Counted from the first letter of the stretch, positions 34,827 through 58,727 are shown. The stretch: 58,727 nt of DNA from Rhizobium sp. Q54 (GCA_945875865.1 CAMCMF010000005.1:1-58727), one strand, 5' to 3'. The notes: generated from the sequence alone by a model not told the origin. Made by a program: numbers and translations.

Positions 34827-35294
34827 ATGATTTCAGTAATAATGGGCAGCAAGTCAGACTTCGCTACCATGAAACATTCCTGCGAAATATTGGATGATTT
34901 TGGTATCAAATATGAAGCCAAAATCATCTCCGCACATCGCACACCAAAAAGACTCTATGATTTTTGTGAAGCAGCAAAAAAAAATGGAATCAAAATAATT
35001 ATTGCTGGAGCTGGCGGTGCCGCACATTTACCCGGCATGACCGCGGCGATGACTTCTATTCCTGTTCTTGGCGTTCCGGTTGAAAGTCGCACCCTTAAAG
35101 GTCTCGACTCACTTCTTTCAATCGCACAAATGCCATATGGAATTCCAGTTGGAACTTTAGCTATTGGTGAAGCGGGAGCAAAAAATGCTGCTCTTTTGGC
35201 AATCGCGATTCTCGCATTAAGCGACGAAAAACTAGCAAAAAAACTGGAAATATTTCGCGCAAAACAAACTAAATCTATCGCCATCAAGCCATAG
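34827..35294 (+). CDS. purE: N5-carboxyaminoimidazole ribonucleotide mutase
   Basis: [24 protein letters not shown] and SIAQMP; start at ATG 34827. Confidence 0.97.
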
Positions 35295-48873: not shown

Positions 48874-50193
48874 TTACCTTTTAGACATTGAAGGAACTTT
48901 GATATCAGCATTAACAATAACCGTGATTCTAGTTCCTTGTGGAACGCGAATAACTGGAGTTAAATCGAGTGCGCTATTTACGATTTGACCAACCGTGTCG
49001 ACGATAGTTTTAGTGACATCATAAAGAGCCTGATTCGTAGCATTGCCAGTTGTTGTTGTGGTTCCTTGTGTTGGATTAGCTGTAGTTGTTGTGGCTTGAT
49101 TTCCCAAAAGACTTTGAGCTGCTGCAACACCACCAACTGCTAAAACACTTGTGAGTAAAGAGTTAGTGATCACGGAGCTATATTTATTATCAACTTCACC
49201 AGCGATACCAGCTCTACCAAATTGATCTGCCGCAACAGAAGAAATTGCTAAGTCAACTCCATCGGGACGAATCAAGCGGCTCCAATTAATTTGCACTCTG
49301 CCCTGACCTCTTTTTATTTCACTGGAATAAGCTCCGAATAAACGCGAACCCCTTGGAATTAAAACATCATTTCCTGATTCACCATAAACATCCCTACCAA
49401 TCACCGCACGAACTGATCCCGGAATTTCGGTATTGATTGCAGTTTCCAGAACTGCCGTGAGTAATTTACCCTGTGCAATTGTGTGAACGCGATCGGCAAT
49501 GTAAGTAGTGACAACTGCGGATTCAGTTTCTTCTAATTCTTCCAGCGGATCTTTTTTTAGCTTCACGATATTTTTTTCGTAACCCACTCCTCGCGAAGGT
49601 AGGTTGGCATTACCACCAGCAAAAACAATGATTGGAGCGTAACGAGGATCGGTTGGTTTTTTTTCTTCTCCCATTTTCACTTCACCATTCAGCTGATTGG
49701 TTTGAGCTGTTGGATCATTGGGATTTATAATCGGAAATTTATCACCGGACATAACTTGCGTTGGCAATAGAGCGTTAGGATTTTGCTGATTTGGATTTAT
49801 AATATCCGCTAAATTCAATTGATTACCCGCCGTAGAATCCTTTGGCAATTCTGGCAAAGTTGGAACATCTGGGGTTGAGGGCTTTGCTAAATCTTCTACT
49901 TCTTGTTTTTGCCGTTCTTTTGAATCATCAAATTCAAACAAGGATTTTCCATTATCACTTTGAGTAATAGATGCCTTTGGCAACTCGATCGCTTCTAATT
50001 TTTCATTGGGCTTTTCTGGCTCCTTGAAGAAGAAAAAATAAAATACCATCACTGTCAAAATAGTTGAAGCAGCGATAATCATCATTTTACTTTTTTTTGC
50101 AGCAGCAATCGCCGGACCATTCGATGCGACGTCAATCGAGTCATCCCTATCTTCTTGGATTTCAGCAGGGCGCTGTTTAACTTTTGGTTTCAT
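48874..50193 (-). CDS. virB10: Type IV secretion VirB10/TrbI family protein
   Basis: Single TM, Pro-rich linker, AVLETAINTEIPG, VLIPRGSRLFG, WSRLIRPDG, DQFGRAG and PVIRVPQGTRI. Confidence 0.93.
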   Translation of the reverse strand: MKPKVKQRPAEIQEDRDDSIDVASNGPAIAAAKKSKMMIIAASTILTVMVFYFFFFKEPEKPNEKLEAIELPKASITQSDNGKSLFEFDDSKERQKQEVEDLAKPSTPDVPTLPELPKDSTAGNQLNLADIINPNQQNPNALLPTQVMSGDKFPIINPNDPTAQTNQLNGEVKMGEEKKPTDPRYAPIIVFAGGNANLPSRGVGYEKNIVKLKKDPLEELEETESAVVTTYIADRVHTIAQGKLLTAVLETAINTEIPGSVRAVIGRDVYGESGNDVLIPRGSRLFGAYSSEIKRGQGRVQINWSRLIRPDGVDLAISSVAADQFGRAGIAGEVDNKYSSVITNSLLTSVLAVGGVAAAQSLLGNQATTTTANPTQGTTTTTGNATNQALYDVTKTIVDTVGQIVNSALDLTPVIRVPQGTRITVIVNADIKVPSMSKR

Positions 50194-50194
50194 G

Positions 50195-52378
50195 CTAGAT
50201 TATTTTCGTCTTAAAGAGAAAAGTTTTTATCATATTAAAAATTTCTTCTTTTCTTTCTGAATTGATGATCACGTGATTTGAAAAATCAACTTCCTCAAGC
50301 TGTTTCTCTTTAGAATTAATTTGATCATAAATCATTCTTCCGCTAATTGGATTAACCACAGGATCTTTGTTCGCCTGAATAATCAAGGCATTAGCTGATA
50401 CCCTGCTAAGATTTCCTTCACAAAGCTGCATCAATTTTTCTAACTCGTGAACACCTTTAATGTAATTGCGACTATAGTTAATCTCAGGATTTTCTGGATG
50501 ATCATCAACATATTCAAAGCGACCTTTTCCGATATTAAATTTTTCCAACATCTCATTCCACAAATCTATTCCGGGAACCATGCGAGCTTTAATATCTAAT
50601 AATTTTAGCGCGGCATTAATCGAAATAACCGCATGAATTTTTTTTGCTCGCGCAGCTTTTCTAGCGCAAGAAAGTAGACTCAAAAGACCTCCGGTCGAAA
50701 AGCCGATTATCACAATTCTTGAAGAAATATTTTGTAAAGCGGCGTAACCACGCTGCACTGAATCATACCATTTTTCAACACTAGTATCCCGAAGATTTAT
50801 CGGTGCCGTGCCGTGTCCATGAAGCCTCGTTACATAAACCTTAAAACCAAAACCATTTAAGAATTTTGCTAGTGATTCAGTTTCTTTTGGCGCAGATTTA
50901 TAACCATGAACCAATAAAATTCCGACTTTTTTCACTCGTGATGGAGCTTTGATTTTTGTATCAAGAAAAAATGGCGAGCCAACAGATTTATCTTTAGAAA
51001 ATTTTTCATCAAAATAAGTGGCGTAATCGGAATTAAAATTTTCTAAATCACACTTTTGAATCCCAGCAAAAACTTTTTTTCTTAACTCCTCATCAGGAGT
51101 TTTGGCATTTCTTTTTACAATTCCATTCGCCACTTCTAACAAAAAGAATTCATTGGCAACAACGTGTAAAGTGTTCTCGCGCCTGATCTCATGGAAATCA
51201 TATTTTTTATTAAATGAGCCTCTATTGATTCTGATTTTATCGCCCGGAGTTTCTACAATCAGATTCTGCTTTTTTGCTAATTCAAAAACGCTGTCAAATT
51301 CTTCATGAGGCTCATCGATAAAAATTTTATAAAGATTTTCCTCAAAAATACTTTGATTGGGACGATATTTTCCGCTTTTTCTTATCATCGAAGCCGATAA
51401 ATAAATCACTCTTTTCAAACGATTAATTTCGACTTCGCCTTCGCTAAAATGATGTAGAGCTGCGATAAAAATATGATCTAAATTAACCTGAACATCAGAA
51501 TAGATCCTGCTCATAAAATCATTGGTGAGCGAGGATTTAAAATAGCGCAGAATAAAATTATTTTTTGTTTCATCCTTAATGATCGGAATTTGTGAAATCA
51601 CATCGCGGGTTTTTTTAATATATTCTCCCAGACTGATCGGATCGCCAAAATTGACATTGATTTCAGCGCCCAACAAAAGATTTCCTTCTATTTCTAATTC
51701 TTCCACAACTTGCTTGGGAATATCTTTGATCAATCGGTTGGCTAATCGTTGAATGGCATTATTTCCAGGACGAATCGGATAATAAGTGATGTTGAGCGGA
51801 ACGATATTGGTGTTAAGATCCTTGAGGCGATCATCATATTTTAAATGGAAAGTCCGTTCAAATTCATCTAAAGCGGTTTGATTTTTTTGCGCCGCAGCCT
51901 CGATTAGATCAGAGCGGTAAAGCTGCGATTTTAAAGCCAACACAGAGGATCCTGTACGCACCGGTCCAACGCGATGAGGGGTATAATTCATGAATAATCC
52001 TTCATGACGAATTTCTTTGCTTTTCAGCATGCCGCCTTCGGGATAGATCATCCAATCATAATCACCGGTGATCAAATCTTTTAATATGATATTATCGCGC
52101 TTAGGATCTTTGGTGGAGATAGTTCCAACTGAGCTTAAAAAATTTCCTAAAGCACCGAAATAAAGTCCGGAATCGGCCAAACAGCGCACTTGGCGGCCAG
52201 TATATTTGTAAATTAAATAGGGAATAAAAAATGTCTCGGAGCGCGTAAAATGATTGGCTACAAACAGAGTCGGCTGTTTAGGCAATTTTTCTAAACCACT
52301 AATAGAAAATCGCGAACCCAAGATTTTTTCCAAAACCCGCAAGGCAATCGAAGCATAGTGGAAGGTTTTTGCTGCCAT
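50195..52378 (-). CDS. PlsC-like acyltransferase fused to an alpha/beta carboxylesterase
   Basis: FVANHFTRSE and IYPEGGM (acyltransferase); LVHGY, GFSTG, DPVV and NHVI (hydrolase triad). Confidence 0.85.
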   Translation of the reverse strand: MAAKTFHYASIALRVLEKILGSRFSISGLEKLPKQPTLFVANHFTRSETFFIPYLIYKYTGRQVRCLADSGLYFGALGNFLSSVGTISTKDPKRDNIILKDLITGDYDWMIYPEGGMLKSKEIRHEGLFMNYTPHRVGPVRTGSSVLALKSQLYRSDLIEAAAQKNQTALDEFERTFHLKYDDRLKDLNTNIVPLNITYYPIRPGNNAIQRLANRLIKDIPKQVVEELEIEGNLLLGAEINVNFGDPISLGEYIKKTRDVISQIPIIKDETKNNFILRYFKSSLTNDFMSRIYSDVQVNLDHIFIAALHHFSEGEVEINRLKRVIYLSASMIRKSGKYRPNQSIFEENLYKIFIDEPHEEFDSVFELAKKQNLIVETPGDKIRINRGSFNKKYDFHEIRRENTLHVVANEFFLLEVANGIVKRNAKTPDEELRKKVFAGIQKCDLENFNSDYATYFDEKFSKDKSVGSPFFLDTKIKAPSRVKKVGILLVHGYKSAPKETESLAKFLNGFGFKVYVTRLHGHGTAPINLRDTSVEKWYDSVQRGYAALQNISSRIVIIGFSTGGLLSLLSCARKAARAKKIHAVISINAALKLLDIKARMVPGIDLWNEMLEKFNIGKGRFEYVDDHPENPEINYSRNYIKGVHELEKLMQLCEGNLSRVSANALIIQANKDPVVNPISGRMIYDQINSKEKQLEEVDFSNHVIINSERKEEIFNMIKTFLFKTKII

Positions 52379-52380
52379 GC

Positions 52381-53403
52381 TTAAGAGAAATGTTTTTCGA
52401 AAACAGATTCATTGAGTTTTGCTAACTCTTTGATTTCAACTTCAGAGGAATTGATGCGAATTTTTTCTTTTACAACCACACCAATTTTAAAAACTGCGAT
52501 AGATTTTTTTTCAGCTTTTTTTCTTAATTCCTTAACCATCGAAGAATCAAGAGTGACAATATAACGTGACTGATCTTCGGCAAAAAGAATTTTATTTTCA
52601 TCATTTTCACCAGCTGCTTTCAGTTCAGATAAATCAATATCGCAACCGAGTTTGAGGTTAGACATTTCAAATAAAGCAACCAGCAATCCACCGTCAGAAA
52701 TATCGTGACAAGCGTTGATGGAAGCGCTCTCAATTAATTCGCGAACAAATTCACCATGTTTTTTTTCTTCAGCTAAATCAACGATTGGGGGATTTTTTTT
52801 GCTTTCAATTTTCAAAATTTCGCGCTCGAAAAGAGAACAGGAAATATGGCCAGCAGTTTTGCCAATTACGATAATTTCATCACCGATCATTTTGAATTTT
52901 GAGTCACATCTTTTTTGAAAATCTTTCAACAATCCAACACCGCCAATTGCTGGAGTTGGCTGAATCGCCTTGCCATCAGTTTCATTGTAAAGTGAAACAT
53001 TTCCGGAAACGACGGGATAATCCAAAGCCTTACAAGCTTCTGTTATTCCTTGAATTGCACGCACAATTTGTCCCATGATTTCGGGCTTTTGCGGATTACC
53101 AAAATTCAAACAATTTGTAATCGCCAAAGGTTTGCCACCAACTGCAGAAATATTGCGATAAGTTTCTGCAACCGCTTGTTTAGCGCCTTCAAAAGCATCA
53201 GCTTCAACATAACGCGGAGTACAATCTGCCGTTAGCGCTAAAGCTTTTTGAGTGTTGTGAACACGAATAATCGCAGCATCTCCACCAGTTTGAATAGTAT
53301 CGTTCATCACCTGCGAATCATATTGCTCGTAGATCCATTTTTTTGAGGCAAGATCAGGAACTTGCAGGAGTGTTTTTAAATTTTCGAGAATTTGTGAAGA
53401 CAT
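52381..53403 (-). CDS. purL: FGAM synthetase PurL, C-terminal half (split gene)
   Basis: DLASKKWIYEQYD, ITNCLNFGNP, VSGNVSLYNET and HDISDGGL; own ATG at 53403 (TTG at 53412), with an in-frame stop just upstream. Confidence 0.92.
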   Translation of the reverse strand: MSSQILENLKTLLQVPDLASKKWIYEQYDSQVMNDTIQTGGDAAIIRVHNTQKALALTADCTPRYVEADAFEGAKQAVAETYRNISAVGGKPLAITNCLNFGNPQKPEIMGQIVRAIQGITEACKALDYPVVSGNVSLYNETDGKAIQPTPAIGGVGLLKDFQKRCDSKFKMIGDEIIVIGKTAGHISCSLFEREILKIESKKNPPIVDLAEEKKHGEFVRELIESASINACHDISDGGLLVALFEMSNLKLGCDIDLSELKAAGENDENKILFAEDQSRYIVTLDSSMVKELRKKAEKKSIAVFKIGVVVKEKIRINSSEVEIKELAKLNESVFEKHFS

Positions 53404-53409
53404 TTGGGG

Positions 53410-53466
53410 CAATTATCAATTAACAATTATCAATTAACAAAAGTTGGAATTTGTTAATTGATAATT
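53410..53466. repeat. Heptamer repeats (CAATTAT/CAATTAA)4 with an inverted partial copy
   Basis: CAATTAT CAATTAA CAATTAT CAATTAA CAA ... TTGTTAATTGATAATT; related array at 56705-56733. Confidence 0.8.
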
Positions 53467-53562
53467 ACTACTTGTTACTTGATTCGCATTGACTCAGAAC
53501 CCTTGAAGACAAGGTTTTGATGGAAGTTTTTTATGATTTCATAATTTAGATCACAAGAAAAT

Positions 53563-55503
53563 TCATTGATGTGAATACTGTGTTTTTGCGTCCTGAAGAT
53601 TGACGACCGCTGATGTAGAAAAATTTTCAACTCTCGCTCTAGGCTTAAAAAAAACCAATGCAGCTTCACGCCCAACTTTAAATGCTTGGTTCACTTCATC
53701 ATTATTAATAGCCCAACTAATATTTGAAGATTTTATATCCACCTCGCCACCATAAATTTTTGACGAAATCATGCCATCACCAAGCATTGATCTACAAAGA
53801 GGATCCTCAGATTTTCTTAAATCAAAATTAAATCCTCTTGCACTAATCATCACATCATATTCCAACTTTTTTCCATCAGACATTTGAATAATAATTTTCT
53901 CATTTTCTCCTTGCGCTTGAGCGGCATCGCGCCCGATTACTCTCGCATTAAAAATTCCACTTTTGACAAGAGACATCATCTCCTTTACTGATTGAATTGG
54001 CACTTTTTCTTTATGAAAGGAATTAGCGATGTGGGCAATTGCGTAAAATATTTGCGAATCAGATGCTTTTTCTAACGCATGCGATTTTTCATCGAGCGAA
54101 TAAAATTGTTTAAAAATATCATTCAAAAAAAGATATCCCTCCGCCTTATCTCCTTTTAAAAACATCGCTTCAAAAGCTACAAAAATTTTTAGATAATCCA
54201 CATCTTTTGCCTCCACTTTAAAAGCTTTTTGTATTTTTTTGAATTGAGACAGTGGCTCACAAATATTCGCAGCTATTTCATCTAGTTTTTTATCAATTTC
54301 CTCATCCGTAAATGATGATGATTGAGCGATCATAATTTTAATAAACTTTTTCGCTGTATCAGCATATTCTTTGTTTTTTACTCGATTAGAAATTTCTGCC
54401 GTTCTAGCAAAAATCATCAACACTTGCCATAAATAAATTTGTCCACCCTGCTCCTTTACAAGATTCTCAATTACATTACGAGATTTAAGTAATTCATATG
54501 TAAGGTCATTTTTTCTTGGTAAAATTTGCGGTCCTGGGTTAATTTTTTTCATTACATTGGTGCGCGAAAGCATCTCGACAGAAATCACATATCCCTCCCC
54601 ATCATCTGGAGTAAATTTCAAATTACCTTCACCATCCTCTTCAAAAAAACCCCCGCTAGTAGCAATTGTTTTTAAGGCATCTAGCGCACTTAAACCATTT
54701 CCCTGAATTGCTATTGAGATTATTTTATTTTCATCGCCAGCAGCTTTTCTTTTTGCAATCTCCATTGCAATTATTCTATCCAAATTTGCCGTTAAATTTT
54801 TTGATGGCCAAACTTCTGGAATATATCTTTCCGATTCAACATCACCCTTCGTAAATTGTGAGCCCGTTGAAATTATTGCATGATCAAATTTTATAAATTT
54901 ATCAGCACAACCAAGAGTTAATTCGCCAGATTGTTTATCTTCTGTTAAAGAGGTTACTTTGCCGCGGGGATGAAGATTTACAAGAACGCCGTGAGCTTTA
55001 ATTTTTTCTACTGTTTCTGCAAAAATTTGACTGGAATAAATTCCAAAAAGAATTCTTGGATGATGGATATCAATAGTTTCTAAATTTAAATAACGCTTTT
55101 GAAAACCTGCCCAAATTTTATCGCAATGCTCTCGTAAAGCTTTTTTTTCATTGAAATTTGGCTCAATGATTCCCTCAAATTTGCCAAAGCGTTGCTCGAA
55201 TTTTCTTACAAATCTCTCTTCAAAAATTCTATAAAAACGCTCAATAATTTTATCTTTTTTAGATTTAATAAATTCGAAATAATTATCCGAATCAGGAATT
55301 TTAATAGCGTTGGATTTGAAATTAAATAACTGCCAAGAATCGGTTGTTTCAGGATTGAAAGCTAGTCCAGCACCCATGATTTCTGATTTATCAAAAATAT
55401 CAATTTGCACGATATCCGTGACTTCCTTTTTATCTAATTTATCCGCTATTTCAAAAATAGCTCCTAAGCCAGTTAGGCCGGCGCCAATAATGGCAATCCT
55501 CAT
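53563..55503 (-). CDS. FAD/NAD(P)-binding domain protein of unknown function
   Basis: MRIAIIGAGLTGL Rossmann motif, PRILFGIY and a second GNGLSALD motif; ATGA overlap with the dctA stop. Confidence 0.8.
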   Translation of the reverse strand: MRIAIIGAGLTGLGAIFEIADKLDKKEVTDIVQIDIFDKSEIMGAGLAFNPETTDSWQLFNFKSNAIKIPDSDNYFEFIKSKKDKIIERFYRIFEERFVRKFEQRFGKFEGIIEPNFNEKKALREHCDKIWAGFQKRYLNLETIDIHHPRILFGIYSSQIFAETVEKIKAHGVLVNLHPRGKVTSLTEDKQSGELTLGCADKFIKFDHAIISTGSQFTKGDVESERYIPEVWPSKNLTANLDRIIAMEIAKRKAAGDENKIISIAIQGNGLSALDALKTIATSGGFFEEDGEGNLKFTPDDGEGYVISVEMLSRTNVMKKINPGPQILPRKNDLTYELLKSRNVIENLVKEQGGQIYLWQVLMIFARTAEISNRVKNKEYADTAKKFIKIMIAQSSSFTDEEIDKKLDEIAANICEPLSQFKKIQKAFKVEAKDVDYLKIFVAFEAMFLKGDKAEGYLFLNDIFKQFYSLDEKSHALEKASDSQIFYAIAHIANSFHKEKVPIQSVKEMMSLVKSGIFNARVIGRDAAQAQGENEKIIIQMSDGKKLEYDVMISARGFNFDLRKSEDPLCRSMLGDGMISSKIYGGEVDIKSSNISWAINNDEVNQAFKVGREAALVFFKPRARVENFSTSAVVNLQDAKTQYSHQ

Positions 55504-56705
55504 TCTTTAAATTCTTTTTCCAATTTACTAATCGCCACTGCAGCAGTGGCATTGCCGATCAGATTAGTAACGGCGCGGGCTTCGGACATGAAGCGGTCGA
55601 TTCCTAAAATTAAAGCCAAGCCGGCAACTGGAATAGTTGGAAGCACCGAAAGCGTTGCTGCTAAAGTGATGAAGCCACTTCCAGTAACTCCAGCCGCACC
55701 TTTGGAAGTGATCAATAAAACCAACATCATGGTTAAAATTTGATGCAGCGATAAATCAATATTGAAAGCCTGAGCCAAGAATAAAATCGCCATCGTAAAA
55801 TAAATGCAGGTGCCGTCGAGATTGAAGGAGTAGCCACTTGGAATCACCAATCCCACAATCGATTTTGGACAACCAAAATTTTGCATTTTCAACATCAAAC
55901 TTGGCAAAGCTGATTCGGATGAAGAAGTGCCGAGCACTAAAAAAATTTCTTCTTTGATGTGGGAGATGAGCTTGAAAATGCTCGAGCCACAAAGTTTTAA
56001 AACCAAACCAAGGGCAAAAATTATAAATAAAATGCAGGTGATGTAAAAACAGATCATGAGTTTAGCCAGCGGCAGCAGTGAAGCGAGACCGTATTTTCCA
56101 ATCGTGTAACTCATGGCGCCGAAAGCTCCGATCGGCGCTAGTAACATAATTTTTGAAATGAGTTTGAAAGCGATTTCCGATAAATCGCGGATGCCCTCAA
56201 TTAATGTTTTTGTACGCTCTTGCACTGAAGAAATTGCCAGGCCAAAAATTATTGCGACAAATAAAACTGATAAAATTTCACCGTGAACAAAAGCAGAAAA
56301 TAAAGTATCGGGAATGATATTGAGGAGAAAATCTGTGAAGCTGGAAGTTGGTTTGGAATAGCTAGAAATTGCCGAAGCATCTAACGTTGTGACATCAATA
56401 TTCATACCGCTTCCCGGCTTTAAAAAATGCGTGACGACGAGTCCGATTAGAAGTGCGATCGTGGTTAAAACTTCAAAATAAATCAAAATTTTTAAACCAA
56501 CTTTTCCTAATTTTTTGAGATCAAAAGAATCAATAATTCCCAGCACAATAGTGATAAAAATAATCAGCGGCACGCACATTTTTATCAACTTGATGAATCC
56601 ATCACCCAGTGGCTTCATCGCCTCAGCTTGCGTCGGAAAATATACACCAAAAATTATCGCAAGGACGATTGCAGCGAGAACTTGGAAATAGAGGGGGAGG
56701 CGCAT
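55500..56705 (-). CDS. dctA: C4-dicarboxylate:H+ symporter
   Basis: LYFQVL, FIKLIKM, LGTSSSESALP, GYSFNLDGT, SKGAAGVTGSGF and GIDRFMSEAR. Confidence 0.95.
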   Translation of the reverse strand: MRLPLYFQVLAAIVLAIIFGVYFPTQAEAMKPLGDGFIKLIKMCVPLIIFITIVLGIIDSFDLKKLGKVGLKILIYFEVLTTIALLIGLVVTHFLKPGSGMNIDVTTLDASAISSYSKPTSSFTDFLLNIIPDTLFSAFVHGEILSVLFVAIIFGLAISSVQERTKTLIEGIRDLSEIAFKLISKIMLLAPIGAFGAMSYTIGKYGLASLLPLAKLMICFYITCILFIIFALGLVLKLCGSSIFKLISHIKEEIFLVLGTSSSESALPSLMLKMQNFGCPKSIVGLVIPSGYSFNLDGTCIYFTMAILFLAQAFNIDLSLHQILTMMLVLLITSKGAAGVTGSGFITLAATLSVLPTIPVAGLALILGIDRFMSEARAVTNLIGNATAAVAISKLEKEFKE

Positions 56706-56733
56706 TTAACAATTAACAATTAGCAATTAACAA
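56705..56733. repeat. Heptamer repeats (CAATTAA/CAATTAG) abutting the dctA start codon
   Basis: TTTAA CAATTAA CAATTAG CAATTAA CAA. Confidence 0.7.
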
Positions 56734-56774
56734 AGGGGGTTGGAACGTAATGATGGATCTTGGTTAAACTTAGA

Positions 56775-57073
56775 GAATATTTTTTTCGCAACAGCCACAA
56801 ATCGCGTGCTGGGCGTGGTTTGTAACCGCGTGCTGGGCATGGTTTGTAACCGCGTGCTGGGCGTGGTTTGCAACCGCGCCCTTAAGTTCATAAATTAATT
56901 TCAATTTTGTAAAACATTAAGGCGGCATTGCAAATGCCGCCTAGCGCCGGAATATTTTTTTCGCTCAATCACCCTAACCCCAGCCCGCGTGCTGGGCGTG
57001 GTTTGCAACCGCGTGCTGGGCGTGGTTTGCAACCGCGCCCTTAAGTTCATAAATTAATTTCAATTTTGTAAAA
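56775..57073. repeat. Duplicated module with 24-bp tandem palindromic units (3+2 copies), family F
   Basis: CGCGTGCTGGGCGTGGTTTG(T/C)AAC at 56803, 56827, 56851, 56986 and 57010; each block is followed by the same 40-bp tail. Confidence 0.9.
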
Positions 57074-57140
57074 TATTCAGGTTTTTCTGGATCCCCGCTT
57101 TCGCGAGAATTACAACGAAAAAATAAATCATAGAAAAATA

Positions 57141-58280
57141 TTAAACCCACGGACGATCATATTCCGGAGCGCTTTCCGACAAAGGCTCCGACGGAATGTC
57201 GGCGTAAACTTCGCCTCTCATTTTAATCACCACGCGACCAGTATCGGTCACTTTTCCAATCACCGCAAAATCTAAATTCCATTTTTCAAAAACTTCACGC
57301 GCCACATTTTCTTTTTCGGGCTTGATGATCATTAACATTCTTTCCTGACTTTCGGAAAGCATGATTTCGTAAGGCGTCATGCCAGTTTCGCGTTGTGGGA
57401 CATTTTCTAAATTCAATTCAATTCCGGTTCCGCCCTTCCCTGACATTTCGAATGAAGATGATGTCAAGCCCGCAGCGCCCATGTCTTGAATCGATAAAAT
57501 GCAATCGAGCTGCATTAATTCTTGGCAGGCTTCGAGCAAAAGTTTTTCCGCAAAAGGATCACCCACTTGAACTGTTGGACGCTTATCTTCATCGCCTTCT
57601 TTAAATTCATCTGATGCCATCACCGCACCATTTATGCCGTCGCGGCCAGTTTTTGATCCGACATAAACTACCGATGCGCCAACTTGCGATGCCGCGGAAT
57701 AGAAAATTTTATCTTTGCTGGCGAGACCAACAGTCATGGCATTAACAATAATATTTCCGTTGTAACTTTTATCAAAGGTAACTTCTCCCGCCACAGTTGG
57801 AACACCGACGCAATTGCCGTAGCCGCCAATTCCCGACACAACTCCATTCACCAATTGTTTAGTTTTTGGATGATTAATATCGCCGAAACGCAATGCATTT
57901 AAATTAGCAATCGGACGCGCACCCATCGTAAAAACGTCGCGCAAAATTCCACCAACTCCAGTCGCCGCACCTTGATATGGCTCGATGAATGACGGGTGAT
58001 TATGACTTTCCATTTTAAAAATTACCGCTTGACCATCGCCAATATCGATCACACCAGCATTTTCACCAGGACCACAAATTACCCATGGAGCGGTAGTATG
58101 CATGGTTTTAAGCCATTTCTTGGTTGATTTATAAGAACAATGTTCCGACCACATCGCCGAAAAAATTCCGAGCTCGGTGATGGATGGAGTGCGCCCAAGA
58201 ATTTCCAAAAGTTTCTGATATTCGCCTTCGGTAAGATTGTGATCTTTAACCAATTGTGGCGTGATTTCGATGTGCTTCAT
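57141..58280 (-). CDS. purL: FGAM synthetase PurL, N-terminal half (split gene)
   Basis: [37 protein letters not shown] and LSESQERM; ends APEYDRPWV-stop. Confidence 0.93.
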
Positions 58281-58516
58281 TAGTTAAGTTTTTTAATTAC
58301 ATATTTATTAAACCAAGCAGGAATGCTTTCGGTTTTTATTTCAACAATTTTTCCATTTTGCGTTTCAGCAAGCCAGAATTCTTTGCTACCGGAAGGAGCA
58401 TCGTGCCCACCCCGACTTACCCGATATTTCACACGAGAAATATTAATTTTTGGGCTTTCGGTTGCAATGAAATAAAGGTAAGTTTTATATCCCAATTCAT
58501 TCGCTTTTTTTAGCAA
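58280..58516 (-). pseudogene. Fragment of a zeta-toxin-like/AAA P-loop protein
   Basis: GYKTYLYFIATESPKINISRVKYRVSRGGHDAP matches the mid-section of this family; no Walker A, weak start, upstream MITE. Confidence 0.6.
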
Positions 58517-58583
58517 AGAAATTTTATCACCAAGAAATTAGGAAAGGAAATTTTCTTAGCAAGACTGGGCTGAGATCAGATTC

Positions 58584-58727
58584 AACCCAGATCCGTCATT
58601 AGAAATTTAACAGAATTTGGCTTAGCCAAGAAAATAAAGGGCGAAGCGGGATTTTTTAGGCGTAAGCTTATCACTTGATAAGTGCGCACTAAAAAATTCT
58701 GATTCAACCGCGTATTTTCTTGGCTAA
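58584..58727. mobile_element. Family D element, truncated by the window end
   Basis: AACCCAGATCCGTCATTAGAAATT start and shared internal blocks (AAGGGCGAA, CGTAA.CTTA, TTCAACCGCG) with 35328-35507. Confidence 0.75.

Follow-up and report, generated by a model that had tools for sequence, protein, structure and literature searches.

We find that in the small-genome freshwater Rickettsiales family to which the window belongs (the window being the whole 58,727-nt stretch of DNA analysed here), the FGAM synthetase gene purL occurs as two separate genes, purL-N and purL-C, which very probably encode a functional two-chain small PurL that is fixed family-wide. The gene structure, its conservation throughout the family, purifying selection on both halves, their co-occurrence with purQ and the absence of any other purL are directly observed. 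Small PurL is the textbook PurM-like homodimer made into one chain by duplication and fusion, in which catalysis was retained by one half while the other turned into a structural pseudo-site. The family presents the natural reverse experiment, in which the halves are separate in at least 11 genera, sometimes hundreds of kb apart, with purifying selection on both. This opens the questions of whether the halves need a covalent link at all, what the degenerate half adds and how fission affects the evolutionary rate of each half.

Structure of the split purL locus

The features of the window on which the argument draws are as follows.

34830..35282, plus strand: purE, intact (TIGR01162, 208.9 bits; cut-off 149.6)
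50195..52378, minus strand: acyltransferase and alpha/beta-hydrolase protein, 727 aa, beginning 2 nt past the purL-C stop
52381..53403, minus strand: purL-C, 340 aa from the ATG at 53403, the A2 and B2 half
53406..53481: palindromic copy of the A/T-rich element (I1, D4), ending just before the purL-C ATG
53563..55503, minus strand: FAD/NAD(P)-binding protein, 646 aa (PF13454)
55500..56705, minus strand: dctA-type C4-dicarboxylate transporter, 401 aa (PF00375; NF002461, 569.5 bits; cut-off 513)
56699..56734: 36-nt copy of a 7-mer-based A/T-rich dispersed element (family D4), directly upstream of the dctA start
56800..57081: repeats separating purL-N from dctA, with five 24-nt GC-rich tandem units in a 159-nt direct duplication (D1, D2)
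56920..56942, minus strand: terminator-like hairpin ~200 nt beyond the purL-N stop, 10 pairs of which 6 are G-C, followed by a T-rich tail
57141..58280, minus strand: purL-N, 379 aa, linker domain with A1 and B1, ATG start, C-terminal end APEYDRPWV before the stop

Neither PurL-N nor PurL-C of the window contains an internal stop or frameshift. PurL-N carries the FGAR-AT_linker (PF18072, residues 13-51), AIRS (PF00586, 72-186) and AIRS_C (PF02769, 199-353) domains, and PurL-C carries AIRS (PF00586, 43-161) and AIRS_C (PF02769, 177-317). Specifically, PurL-N matches positions 1-364 of the 718 in the NCBIfam profile TIGR01736 (592.9 bits; cut-off 525.75) and PurL-C matches positions 380-712 (325.7 bits), so that the halves are complementary and just about 15 linker positions of the profile are absent; PurL-N alone narrowly misses NF002290 (640.1 bits; cut-off 648). 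ORF calling gives a longer frame for purL-C (52381..53412, 343 aa from a TTG), and the ATG at 53403 (MSSQILENLKTLLQVPDLASKKW, 340 aa) was chosen as the start by homology. The purL-N stop and the purL-C start lie 3737 nt (~3.7 kb) apart, with dctA and the FAD/NAD(P)-binding gene between them and all four genes on the minus strand. An earlier note on this DNA had described purL as two intact genes that keep their motifs and are co-oriented with a 3.7-kb cargo of dctA and an FAD-protein gene, near an intact purE, and the reading frames, domain and profile coverage, and alignments bear this description out.

The gap is rich in repeats. The 24-nt unit has 19 matches across the genome at up to 3 mismatches and the A/T-rich D4 element has 58 at up to 4 mismatches, the D4 copy at 56699-56734 being 89% identical to the copy at 53406-53441 directly upstream of purL-C. 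The hairpin at 53406..53481 folds at -24.4 kcal/mol (z = -5.26), and none of 200 shuffles folds equally well. Terminator-like sites, which are consensus matches only, are no more frequent than in shuffles (5 found, 6.6 expected), promoter-like sites do not exceed shuffles either (18 found, 16.9 expected), and on reading the sequence there is no clear Shine-Dalgarno upstream of the purL-C ATG. Logan contigs from one run match 52906-56832 and 57031-58609 without any difference and break at the repeat 56832-57031, which no single contig of that run bridges. Contiguity, a concern of the earlier note, is thus confirmed on both sides of the repeat and not across it, and the purL-N/dctA joint in the window's strain rests on the window's own assembly. 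The order purL-N then dctA is also found in assemblies of three other species (L031, L033 and L066). Strains in three other lake-water runs (X2, X4 and X5) lack 1035 nt of the FAD gene, in frame, with a joint from 54035 to 55071. No RNA run appears among those listed as containing the stretch.

The genome from which the window comes (98.9% complete) contains no second purL and no full-length purL frame. It encodes purQ (327 bits; cut-off 177.8) and purS (79.1 bits; cut-off 39), which adjoin on contig C1, and also keeps purF, purD, purM, purE and purH, each above its curated cut-off. The absence of another full purL and the presence of purQ and purS, which the earlier note had named as points to check, therefore hold in this genome.

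Distribution and evolution of the two halves

We scanned 120 genomes from 17 genera of the family and found purL in 89, with both halves in 80 of these and an uninterrupted full-length frame in none of the 89; the sole long match, in G083, reads through two TAA codons. The split purL occurs in 11 of the 17 genera, the same 11 that carry purQ, and the other six are missing both. One half alone is seen in nine genomes, all at most 92% complete, and purQ without any purL half in three same-genus genomes, G006 (94% complete), G131 (89%) and G135 (80%). Other families of the order encode purL as one frame of 730-790 aa.

The breakpoint is identical in all 15 loci aligned: the N half ends at ...PEY(D/E)R..., and the C half starts with a methionine a few residues before ...LK.LL..P(D/N)LASKKW. 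At this point ten fused outgroups have ~20 extra linker residues. Every purL-bearing relative in the family shares the breakpoint, as the earlier note would lead one to expect, and in the tree the genomes with the split form one monophyletic clade on a long stem. Across the family PurL-N is 81-93% identical and PurL-C 56-83%. PurL-N is only 81% identical to its best fused relative. Among 5.8 billion database proteins, the best 120 stand-alone relatives of PurL-C are all 329-356 aa long. Annotation pipelines give the name 'PurL' to the N half, and call the C half either 'AIR synthase related protein' or 'hypothetical'; such naming may lead pathway reconstructions of these abundant lake bacteria to misjudge purL.

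The spacing of the halves varies widely. Five of the 27 genomes extracted have the halves adjacent, 15-150 nt apart: two of the same genus (G024 and G013) and three of other genera (G062, G083 and G054). Such genomes occur on both sides of the deepest fork of the family. In the others the halves are 0.7-10.5 kb apart, unlinked at 113 kb (G058) or 210 kb (G066), or on separate contigs (10 of the 27). All three relative frames are seen between the halves, and in G054 an in-frame ATG overlaps the purL-N stop as TAATG. The gap content is also variable: dctA is present in seven of the nine same-genus gaps of 3.7-10.5 kb examined, the FAD protein has no tblastn match in other gaps and is found in the window alone among the loci compared, and gaps elsewhere hold MBOAT and AlgX-like genes, an AT3-SGNH acyltransferase, ankyrin proteins or a beta-carbonic anhydrase. 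The same breakpoint with short spacers, together with species-specific gap content, indicates that the cargo is secondary and entered an older intergenic gap afterwards, lineage by lineage. On the other side of purL-C, the acyltransferase/hydrolase gene follows in 11 of 14 other loci, from the same genus and one other (G024, G004, G018, G015, G075, G109, G002, G007, G062, G074 and G083), and gave no match in the remaining three (G013, G008 and G054).

Substitution rates indicate that both halves are under purifying selection. In 55 pairs from 11 same-genus genomes, dN/dS has a median of 0.046 and a maximum of 0.071 for PurL-N and a median of 0.123 and a maximum of 0.185 for PurL-C, values that are approximate owing to high dS (medians 1.3-1.4; undefined in three N pairs) and far below 1 for both halves, in agreement with the selection that the earlier note had supposed. 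Relative to PurL-N, PurL-C has changed faster within the family than among the fused outgroups, with a C/N ratio of 2.7 versus 1.5 in maximum-likelihood tree length on a fixed topology and of 2.9 versus 1.7 in raw protein distances. This faster relative evolution after the split could reflect relaxed constraint or a partly changed role.

In alignments of 33 rows, residues invariant in fused PurLs are retained in both halves, and H47, E91-S97 and R114-P123 of PurL-N are invariant in all 33 sequences, split and fused. We take the histidine motifs SEHCSYK and ESHNHPS and the D-x4-G-A-x-P of PurL-N to be functional residues of the catalytic half. D-x4-G-A-x-P, presumably the canonical motif, occurs in one half only; the other has N-x4-G-x-x-P in the alignments. 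PurL-N and PurL-C are ~23% identical to each other.

Proposed pairing of the chains and alternative explanations

A structural model of PurL-N with PurL-C gave an ipSAE of 0.95 in each of three runs, with 0.00 for the best control; 58 of 80 solved complexes attain that mark, as do 2 of 110 mismatched pairs. Between runs the contacts match at 98% or more, and the partner pLDDT is 94. The modelled interface joins A1 (PurL-N 46-186) to A2 (PurL-C 16-158), plus the new termini. The model thus passes its controls, a check the earlier note had put forward, but since its score may stem from the solved single-chain PurL structures (3VIU, 1VK3 and 3D54), it speaks for likeness rather than binding. That note had read the locus as fission at the linker yielding a functional heterodimer; fission at the linker stands, and the function of the heterodimer is what comparative data and the model suggest.

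From these data we infer the binding of the halves, their enzyme activity and the order of events. The purL gene would have undergone fission in the ancestor of the family, through a cut in the variable ~20-residue linker between the two PurM-like halves of small PurL. PurL-N would have retained the linker domain and A1/B1 with the catalytic motifs, and PurL-C A2/B2. The chains are predicted to pair non-covalently via their A domains, as the subunits of the PurM dimer and A1/A2 within fused PurL do, and this pairing would rebuild the FGAM-synthetase core, working with PurQ (the glutaminase) and PurS in a PurL-N/PurL-C/PurQ/PurS assembly. The split probably started as adjacent genes with a short spacer; the gap would later have taken different cargo in each lineage (here dctA and the FAD protein), and the halves would have become unlinked in several genera.

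An unlikely alternative is that PurL-N works as the enzyme by itself, for instance as a PurM-like A1-A1 homodimer, and that PurL-C has been retained for some other function, possibly together with its acyltransferase/hydrolase neighbour. The motifs of the catalytic half lie in PurL-N, which by itself passes the PurL equivalog cut-off, and both the faster relative change of PurL-C and the 2-nt linkage of purL-C to the 727-aa acyltransferase/hydrolase gene, in this and one other genus, would suit such a role. Yet both halves and purQ are present or missing together by genus, and PurL-C keeps the residues invariant in fused PurL at a dN/dS of 0.12. Its synteny with the acyltransferase gene is also found where the halves are adjacent, so it is probably older than any change of role. 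Additionally, in the model the A domain of PurL-N is buried against PurL-C; an A-domain barrel requires two A domains, as in the solved PurL and PurM structures.

Very improbable, and close to refuted, is the reading of the two frames as remnants of a decaying purL in a host-dependent, purine-importing lineage. In its favour are the small genomes, the loss of purL and purQ from six genera of the family, and the three same-genus genomes mentioned above, in which no purL is seen. However, the halves are stop-free in nearly all of ~80 genomes from 11 genera, their dN/dS is 0.05 (N) and 0.12 (C), PurL-N is 83-93% identical across genera and the window's own genome keeps the other pathway genes intact. 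Nor would decay preserve one exact breakpoint and no others.

There is scarcely any probability that one continuous chain is still produced, whether through recoding over the gap or through RNA or protein splicing (introns or split inteins), or that the gap is an assembly artefact. The short spacers of the adjacent cases, the TAATG overlap in G054 and the unbridged repeat at 56832-57031 are what such readings could draw on, but the halves stand in all three relative frames and are divided by whole genes, by 113-210 kb or by contig boundaries, and 52000-58727 has no match in Rfam, to introns or to any other family, at E up to 0.1. Intein halves would not fit, as PurL-N stops at its last conserved residues and only a few residues precede the first conserved helix of PurL-C. 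Both the stop and the start fall in unique sequence that independent contigs cover without difference, and both recur in dozens of independent assemblies, so misassembly is rejected as the explanation. Finally, that insertion of the dctA/FAD cargo split the gene in the window's lineage, as the earlier note's title implied and as 3.7 kb of co-oriented genes and repeats exactly at the breakpoint might suggest, is refuted by the same breakpoint with 15-150 nt spacers in five of the 27 genomes, by the different cargo elsewhere and by the monophyly and long stem of the split clade; it applies only if taken to describe an insertion after the split.

The two-chain small PurL also admits a bolder reading, which we offer tentatively. 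Two fused proteins of 737-740 aa, P0397 and P0398, have a linker without the (K/V)P(T/S)xxR motif of the ancestral linker. Possibly, an anciently fixed PurL-N/PurL-C/PurQ/PurS assembly has genomically free halves whose constraint shifted upon release (the rate of C over N being ~1.75 times that in fused relatives), and the P0397/P0398 sublineage re-fused them with a new linker. If so, PurL would offer a natural example of the full course from duplication and fusion to fission and re-fusion.

Comparison with known systems

Small PurL (TIGR01736/NF002290; 3VIU, 725 aa; 1VK3; and 3D54, which we take to be the PurL chain of the PurLQS complex) has the same domain order, linker domain-A1-B1-A2-B2, with residues 4-368 of 3VIU aligning with PurL-N and 393-682 with PurL-C. 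The invariant residues are common to both, and the partners purQ and purS are also present in the window's own genome. Unlike small PurL, which is one polypeptide of ~720-790 aa, the window encodes two ORFs of 379 and 340 aa; its family is without the ~20-residue linker between the halves, its two genes are often distant or unlinked, and its PurL-C evolves relatively faster.

Each purL half also contains the AIRS and AIRS_C pair of the subunit of PurM (AIR synthetase) and of the homodimers ThiL, HypE and SelD. In the PurM dimer, A domain packs against A domain, and the modelled A-versus-A interface resembles it, a likeness in which the model may echo solved fused PurL. Distinct from the PurM-superfamily homodimers, which consist of identical chains, the purL halves are two unlike chains at ~23% identity with the canonical motif in one only, which points to an obligate heterodimer rather than a homodimer.

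Two-ORF purL was also found in the single genomes G205 (same order) and G707 (same class), as adjacent frames meeting at about profile positions 371-395. In contrast to the window's family, their sampled relatives have an intact gene, and neither fixation nor unlinking nor cargo is in evidence; these may be frameshift errors or young events. Literature searches on split purL and purL gene fission found no report, and the words 'purine' and 'purL' are absent from the main text, supplements aside, of a preprint on family UBA1997. For archaea, passages of PMC3261824 describe purC and purP as split and name no split purL, the list of split loci in its Additional file 1 aside.

Large single-chain PurL (lgPurL; 1T3T) is an FGAM synthetase of the same modules with more modules fused in one chain, whereas the window has a cut inside the synthetase core. 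Likewise, the mdPurL described for some methanogens (PMC3261824) is a PurS-PurL fusion that adds modules to one chain, and the window's family goes the opposite way. Because lgPurL and mdPurL are built from the same modules, FGAM synthetase evidently tolerates different ways of linking its parts.

Complementary purL genes and their genomic setting

The purL locus of the window comprises the following features.

57141-58280, minus strand: PurL-N, the N-terminal half of small PurL (379 aa)
55500-56705, minus strand: dctA-type transporter
53563-55503, minus strand: FAD/NAD(P)-binding protein (646 aa)
52381-53412 counted from a TTG, with an ATG start at 53403 by homology, minus strand: PurL-C, the C-terminal half (340 aa, MSSQILENLK...)
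Two bases beyond PurL-C, minus strand: acyltransferase/hydrolase (727 aa)
48874-50193, just downstream of the acyltransferase/hydrolase: TrbI/VirB10-type type IV secretion protein (439 aa; PF03743, E = 6.9e-45)

In Pfam, PurL-N contains a linker domain followed by AIRS and AIRS_C domains, and PurL-C contains AIRS and AIRS_C domains. Against the NCBIfam PurL model of 718 positions, PurL-N covers positions 1-364 and PurL-C positions 380-712, so that, judged by their sequences, the two frames are complementary halves of one small PurL. The closest solved structure, 3VIU (725 aa), aligns with PurL-N over residues 4-368 and with PurL-C over residues 393-682, and the cut falls between subdomains B1 and A2. 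These complementary domains and profile ranges bear out the earlier note, which had read the locus as a purL split into two intact genes. The assembly holding the window, itself one entire contig, measures 1.51 Mb in 57 contigs and is 98.9% complete. A search of all 57 contigs with the PurL model finds no second purL, the sole additional match being purM. On contig C1 of this genome, purS and purQ are neighbouring and both intact; additionally, purF, purM, purH, purD and purE each score above the curated cut-off.

The contiguity of the locus holds in part. In the sequencing run that best holds the stretch, contigs match 52906-56832 and 57031-58609 without difference, thus placing the PurL-C start, the cargo (the genes between the two halves) and the PurL-N stop each within unique, well-covered sequence, but no single contig bridges the repeat at 56832-57031. 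Specifically, at 56800-57081, between purL-N and dctA, summed contig depth rises about eight-fold and contigs break; this interval contains five GC-rich tandem units of 24 nt inside a 159-nt duplication. Genome-wide, this unit is matched 19 times at up to 3 mismatches, including 5 in the window, 5 on contig C47 and 3 on contig C2. A terminator-like hairpin lies in the same gap; a promoter and terminator scan returns sites not above shuffles, and no Rfam family is found at E ≤0.1 in 52000-58727. The sequencing runs in which the stretch is listed come from lake-water and freshwater metagenomes, with no RNA run among them. In three other lake-water studies, contigs at 95-99% identity keep purL-C, the FAD gene and dctA in this order. 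They skip from 54035 to 55071, an in-frame loss of 1035 nt (54036-55070) inside the FAD gene with 4 nt of microhomology, such that the FAD protein would be about 301 aa versus 646 in the window, and they carry 13 additional nucleotides at 53467. At the contig end (58525-58727), summed contig depth in the best-holding run is about 20 times that of neighbouring sequence and contigs of several runs stop; a multi-copy repeat probably ended the assembly here, 447 nt upstream of purL-N.

A 36-nt A/T-rich element built of TG(T/A)TAAT heptamers, often in inverted pairs, stands directly upstream of the dctA (56699-56734) and purL-C starts. The copy before purL-C is part of a palindrome at 53406-53481 (fold -24.4 kcal/mol, z = -5.3), within which the 13-nt insertion of the lake-water variant falls. 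Copies also occur just upstream of purS and purD (C1:116009-116032 and C2:101324-101347). Genome-wide, the element has 58 matches when up to 4 mismatches are allowed, and the purL-C spacers inspected from other species show no copy of it; we therefore reject it as a purine operator and regard it as probably a dispersed, genome-specific palindromic repeat.

Distribution of split and fused purL

According to the main text of a preprint on UBA1997, the family consists of freshwater epibionts of cryptophyte algae, and the words "purine" and "purL" are absent from that main text (10.1101/2023.01.31.526412). Among 120 family genomes scanned, 89 have a purL match and none of these 89 contains an uninterrupted full-length frame; both halves are found in 80 and a single half in nine, all of them 60-92% complete. 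The sole long match, in G083, reads through two TAA codons. In 24 genomes drawn from the window's own genus, purL, wherever it occurs, is in two pieces, an N-terminal one of about 380 aa and a C-terminal one of about 340 aa. The split gene is present in 11 of the 17 family genera, and purL is absent from the other six (genomes of 0.7-1.8 Mb as listed). By genus, purQ follows purL: the 11 genera with purL have it and the six without purL lack it. Counter to this simple picture, however, three genomes of the window's own genus have purQ and no purL found (G006, 94% complete; G131, 89%; G135, 80%), and two others have purL and no purQ found (G023 and G138). In other families of the order, purL is either a single frame of about 730-790 aa or missing.

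Outside the family, an order scan of 251 genomes and a class scan of 401 genomes at least 90% complete (including G561, counted as one full-length match) yield few genomes with two matches, of which ten were checked and G219, G244, G304, G311, G327, G329, G350, G430, G520, G597 and G709 were left out. Among the ten, G215, G179, G466 and G601 are rejected as contig breaks, and G318, G146, G573 and G654 as one long frame of 822-1078 aa. In G205 (loci L148/L152) and G707 (L158/L163), two adjacent purL frames meet in the same linker region and sampled relatives are intact; these may be either sequencing frameshift errors or independent young fissions. A lengthened form of the gene was seen in those four long-frame genomes and in six of one family of the order (G144, G177, G199, G217, G234 and G324), where purL is one frame of 775-1078 aa to which the PurL model aligns as two pieces; the region between the halves is lengthened by insertion, not cut.

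In a collection of 5.8 billion proteins, the best 120 stand-alone relatives of PurL-C are all 329-356 aa long. A Pelagibacter-like protein, P0138, clusters with proteins of 343-366 aa on contigs of up to 463 kb. It is rejected as a second split lineage, since the lengths of its close relatives are scattered between 359 and 628 aa, up to the 630-aa ceiling of the search, and one of them carries the name "PurL, partial [Candidatus Pelagibacter ubiqu...". Such a pattern points to inconsistent gene calling or to pieces of a fused gene rather than to a fixed split. Five further proteins of about 340-367 aa (P0165, P0222, P0236, P0244 and P0248) either stand alone in their clusters or have no start. 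Among fused proteins, the best relatives of PurL-N are P0397 (737 aa, 81% identical) and P0398 (740 aa, 79%), from metagenome contigs of 3-5 kb. In a quick tree they nest within the split clade, on a long branch beside genera with adjacent halves, and share the long stem of the split family; their linker is without the (K/V)P(T/S)xxR motif of the outgroups, that is, of fused PurLs outside the family. A tree that keeps all split rows as one clade without these two is not rejected by the AU test (p = 0.256). They may be either a basal lineage of the family that never split or the product of adjacent halves joining again.

Breakpoint, spacing and cargo

We extracted the halves from 27 family genomes, hand-picked from the match lists to cover nine genera and to include adjacent-looking cases. 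In all 15 loci inspected, PurL-N ends in ...PEY(D/E)R.. followed by one to seven further residues, and PurL-C starts with a Met a few residues ahead of the conserved ...LK.LL..P(D/N)LASKKW helix, so these relatives share the breakpoint, for which the note had proposed a survey. At this point, ten fused outgroups have about 20 extra residues, mostly beginning (K/V)P(T/S)xxR. The spacing between the halves is 15-148 nt in five of the 27 (G083, G062, G054, G024 and G013), 0.7 kb in G074 and 3.7-10.5 kb in nine, the window included. In two genomes the halves are distant on one contig (113 kb in G058, 210 kb in G066), and in ten they are on separate contigs. All three relative frames of N and C are represented. 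At one junction (L037, in G054), the stop codon of the N half shares bases with an ATG in the C-half reading frame, giving TAATG, as is typical where the translation of two genes is coupled; inserting or deleting one base there would fuse or split the frames.

The cargo varies among these loci. Seven of the nine same-genus gaps of 3.7-10.5 kb contain dctA, usually with MBOAT and AlgX-like genes next. The gap of G075 holds an AT3-SGNH acyltransferase and that of G074 a beta-carbonic anhydrase; the FAD protein occurs, among the gaps compared, in that of the window only. In G018 (L030), three ankyrin-repeat proteins (698, 1114 and 211 aa) lie alongside dctA, MBOAT and AlgX-like genes; the gap seems to gather accessory genes, possibly ones for host interaction. 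The order of purL-C and the acyltransferase/hydrolase is conserved in the window's genus and in one other. In a quick maximum-likelihood tree of N plus C, all 26 split genomes group together as a single clade (SH-aLRT 100, stem 0.54), with adjacent-half genomes on both sides of its deepest fork. The cargo is, by these comparisons, evidently secondary to the split. In the simplest history, a single fission of purL would have occurred in place, and insertions and translocations would have followed.

Constraint on the halves and the two-chain reading

Both halves retain the residues that are constant in split and fused sequences alike, among them SEHCSYK, ESHNHPS and D-x4-G-A-x-P in PurL-N and a degenerate N-x4-G-x-x-P in PurL-C, motifs to which we presume a functional meaning. 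Across the 55 pairs among 11 same-genus genomes, Nei-Gojobori dN/dS has a median of 0.046 (maximum 0.071) for PurL-N and 0.123 (maximum 0.185) for PurL-C, values that are rough because dS is high (median 1.40, undefined in three pairs, and 1.28, respectively). Both halves are clearly under purifying selection. The ratio of C to N protein divergence is 2.9 within the family versus 1.7 in the ten fused outgroups, and that of maximum-likelihood branch lengths on a fixed topology is 6.95/2.59 = 2.7 inside versus 5.52/3.61 = 1.5 outside. These ratios indicate that the balance of constraint between N and C has shifted in the family.

A complex model of N with C, built on 33-row alignments, reaches an ipSAE of 0.95 in three of three runs versus 0.00 for the best control, a pass that may only reflect the solved structures of fused PurL. 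Among 80 solved complexes, 58 attain the ipSAE mark, as do 2 among 110 mismatched pairs. Contacts are at least 98% alike between runs, and partner pLDDT is 94. The modelled interface pairs N residues 46-186 with C residues 16-158, that is, A1 with A2, and also takes in the last four residues of N and residues near the C terminus of C. The model shows that the predicted halves still resemble the two sides of the fused-PurL interface, which is a likeness and not binding.

Taken together, small PurL has undergone a fission that is shared throughout the family and kept under selection, at the linker joining the two PurM-like halves. We consider it highly probable that this gives a two-chain synthetase core that acts with PurQ and PurS. 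The earlier note's interpretation, fission at the linker and a two-chain enzyme, is thus supported by the family-wide split and by purifying selection, the two-chain core being its most likely outcome. Text searches of the literature, covering article text, find no report of a split purL, and none is reported in the accessible text of PMC3261824.

PurL was made by duplication and fusion. The split purL offers a clean natural test of whether this duplication-fusion can be undone, and exposes a pitfall for annotation in lake bacteria of an abundant group, numerous in spring blooms. The split enzyme is a known one in variant form rather than a novel type of system.
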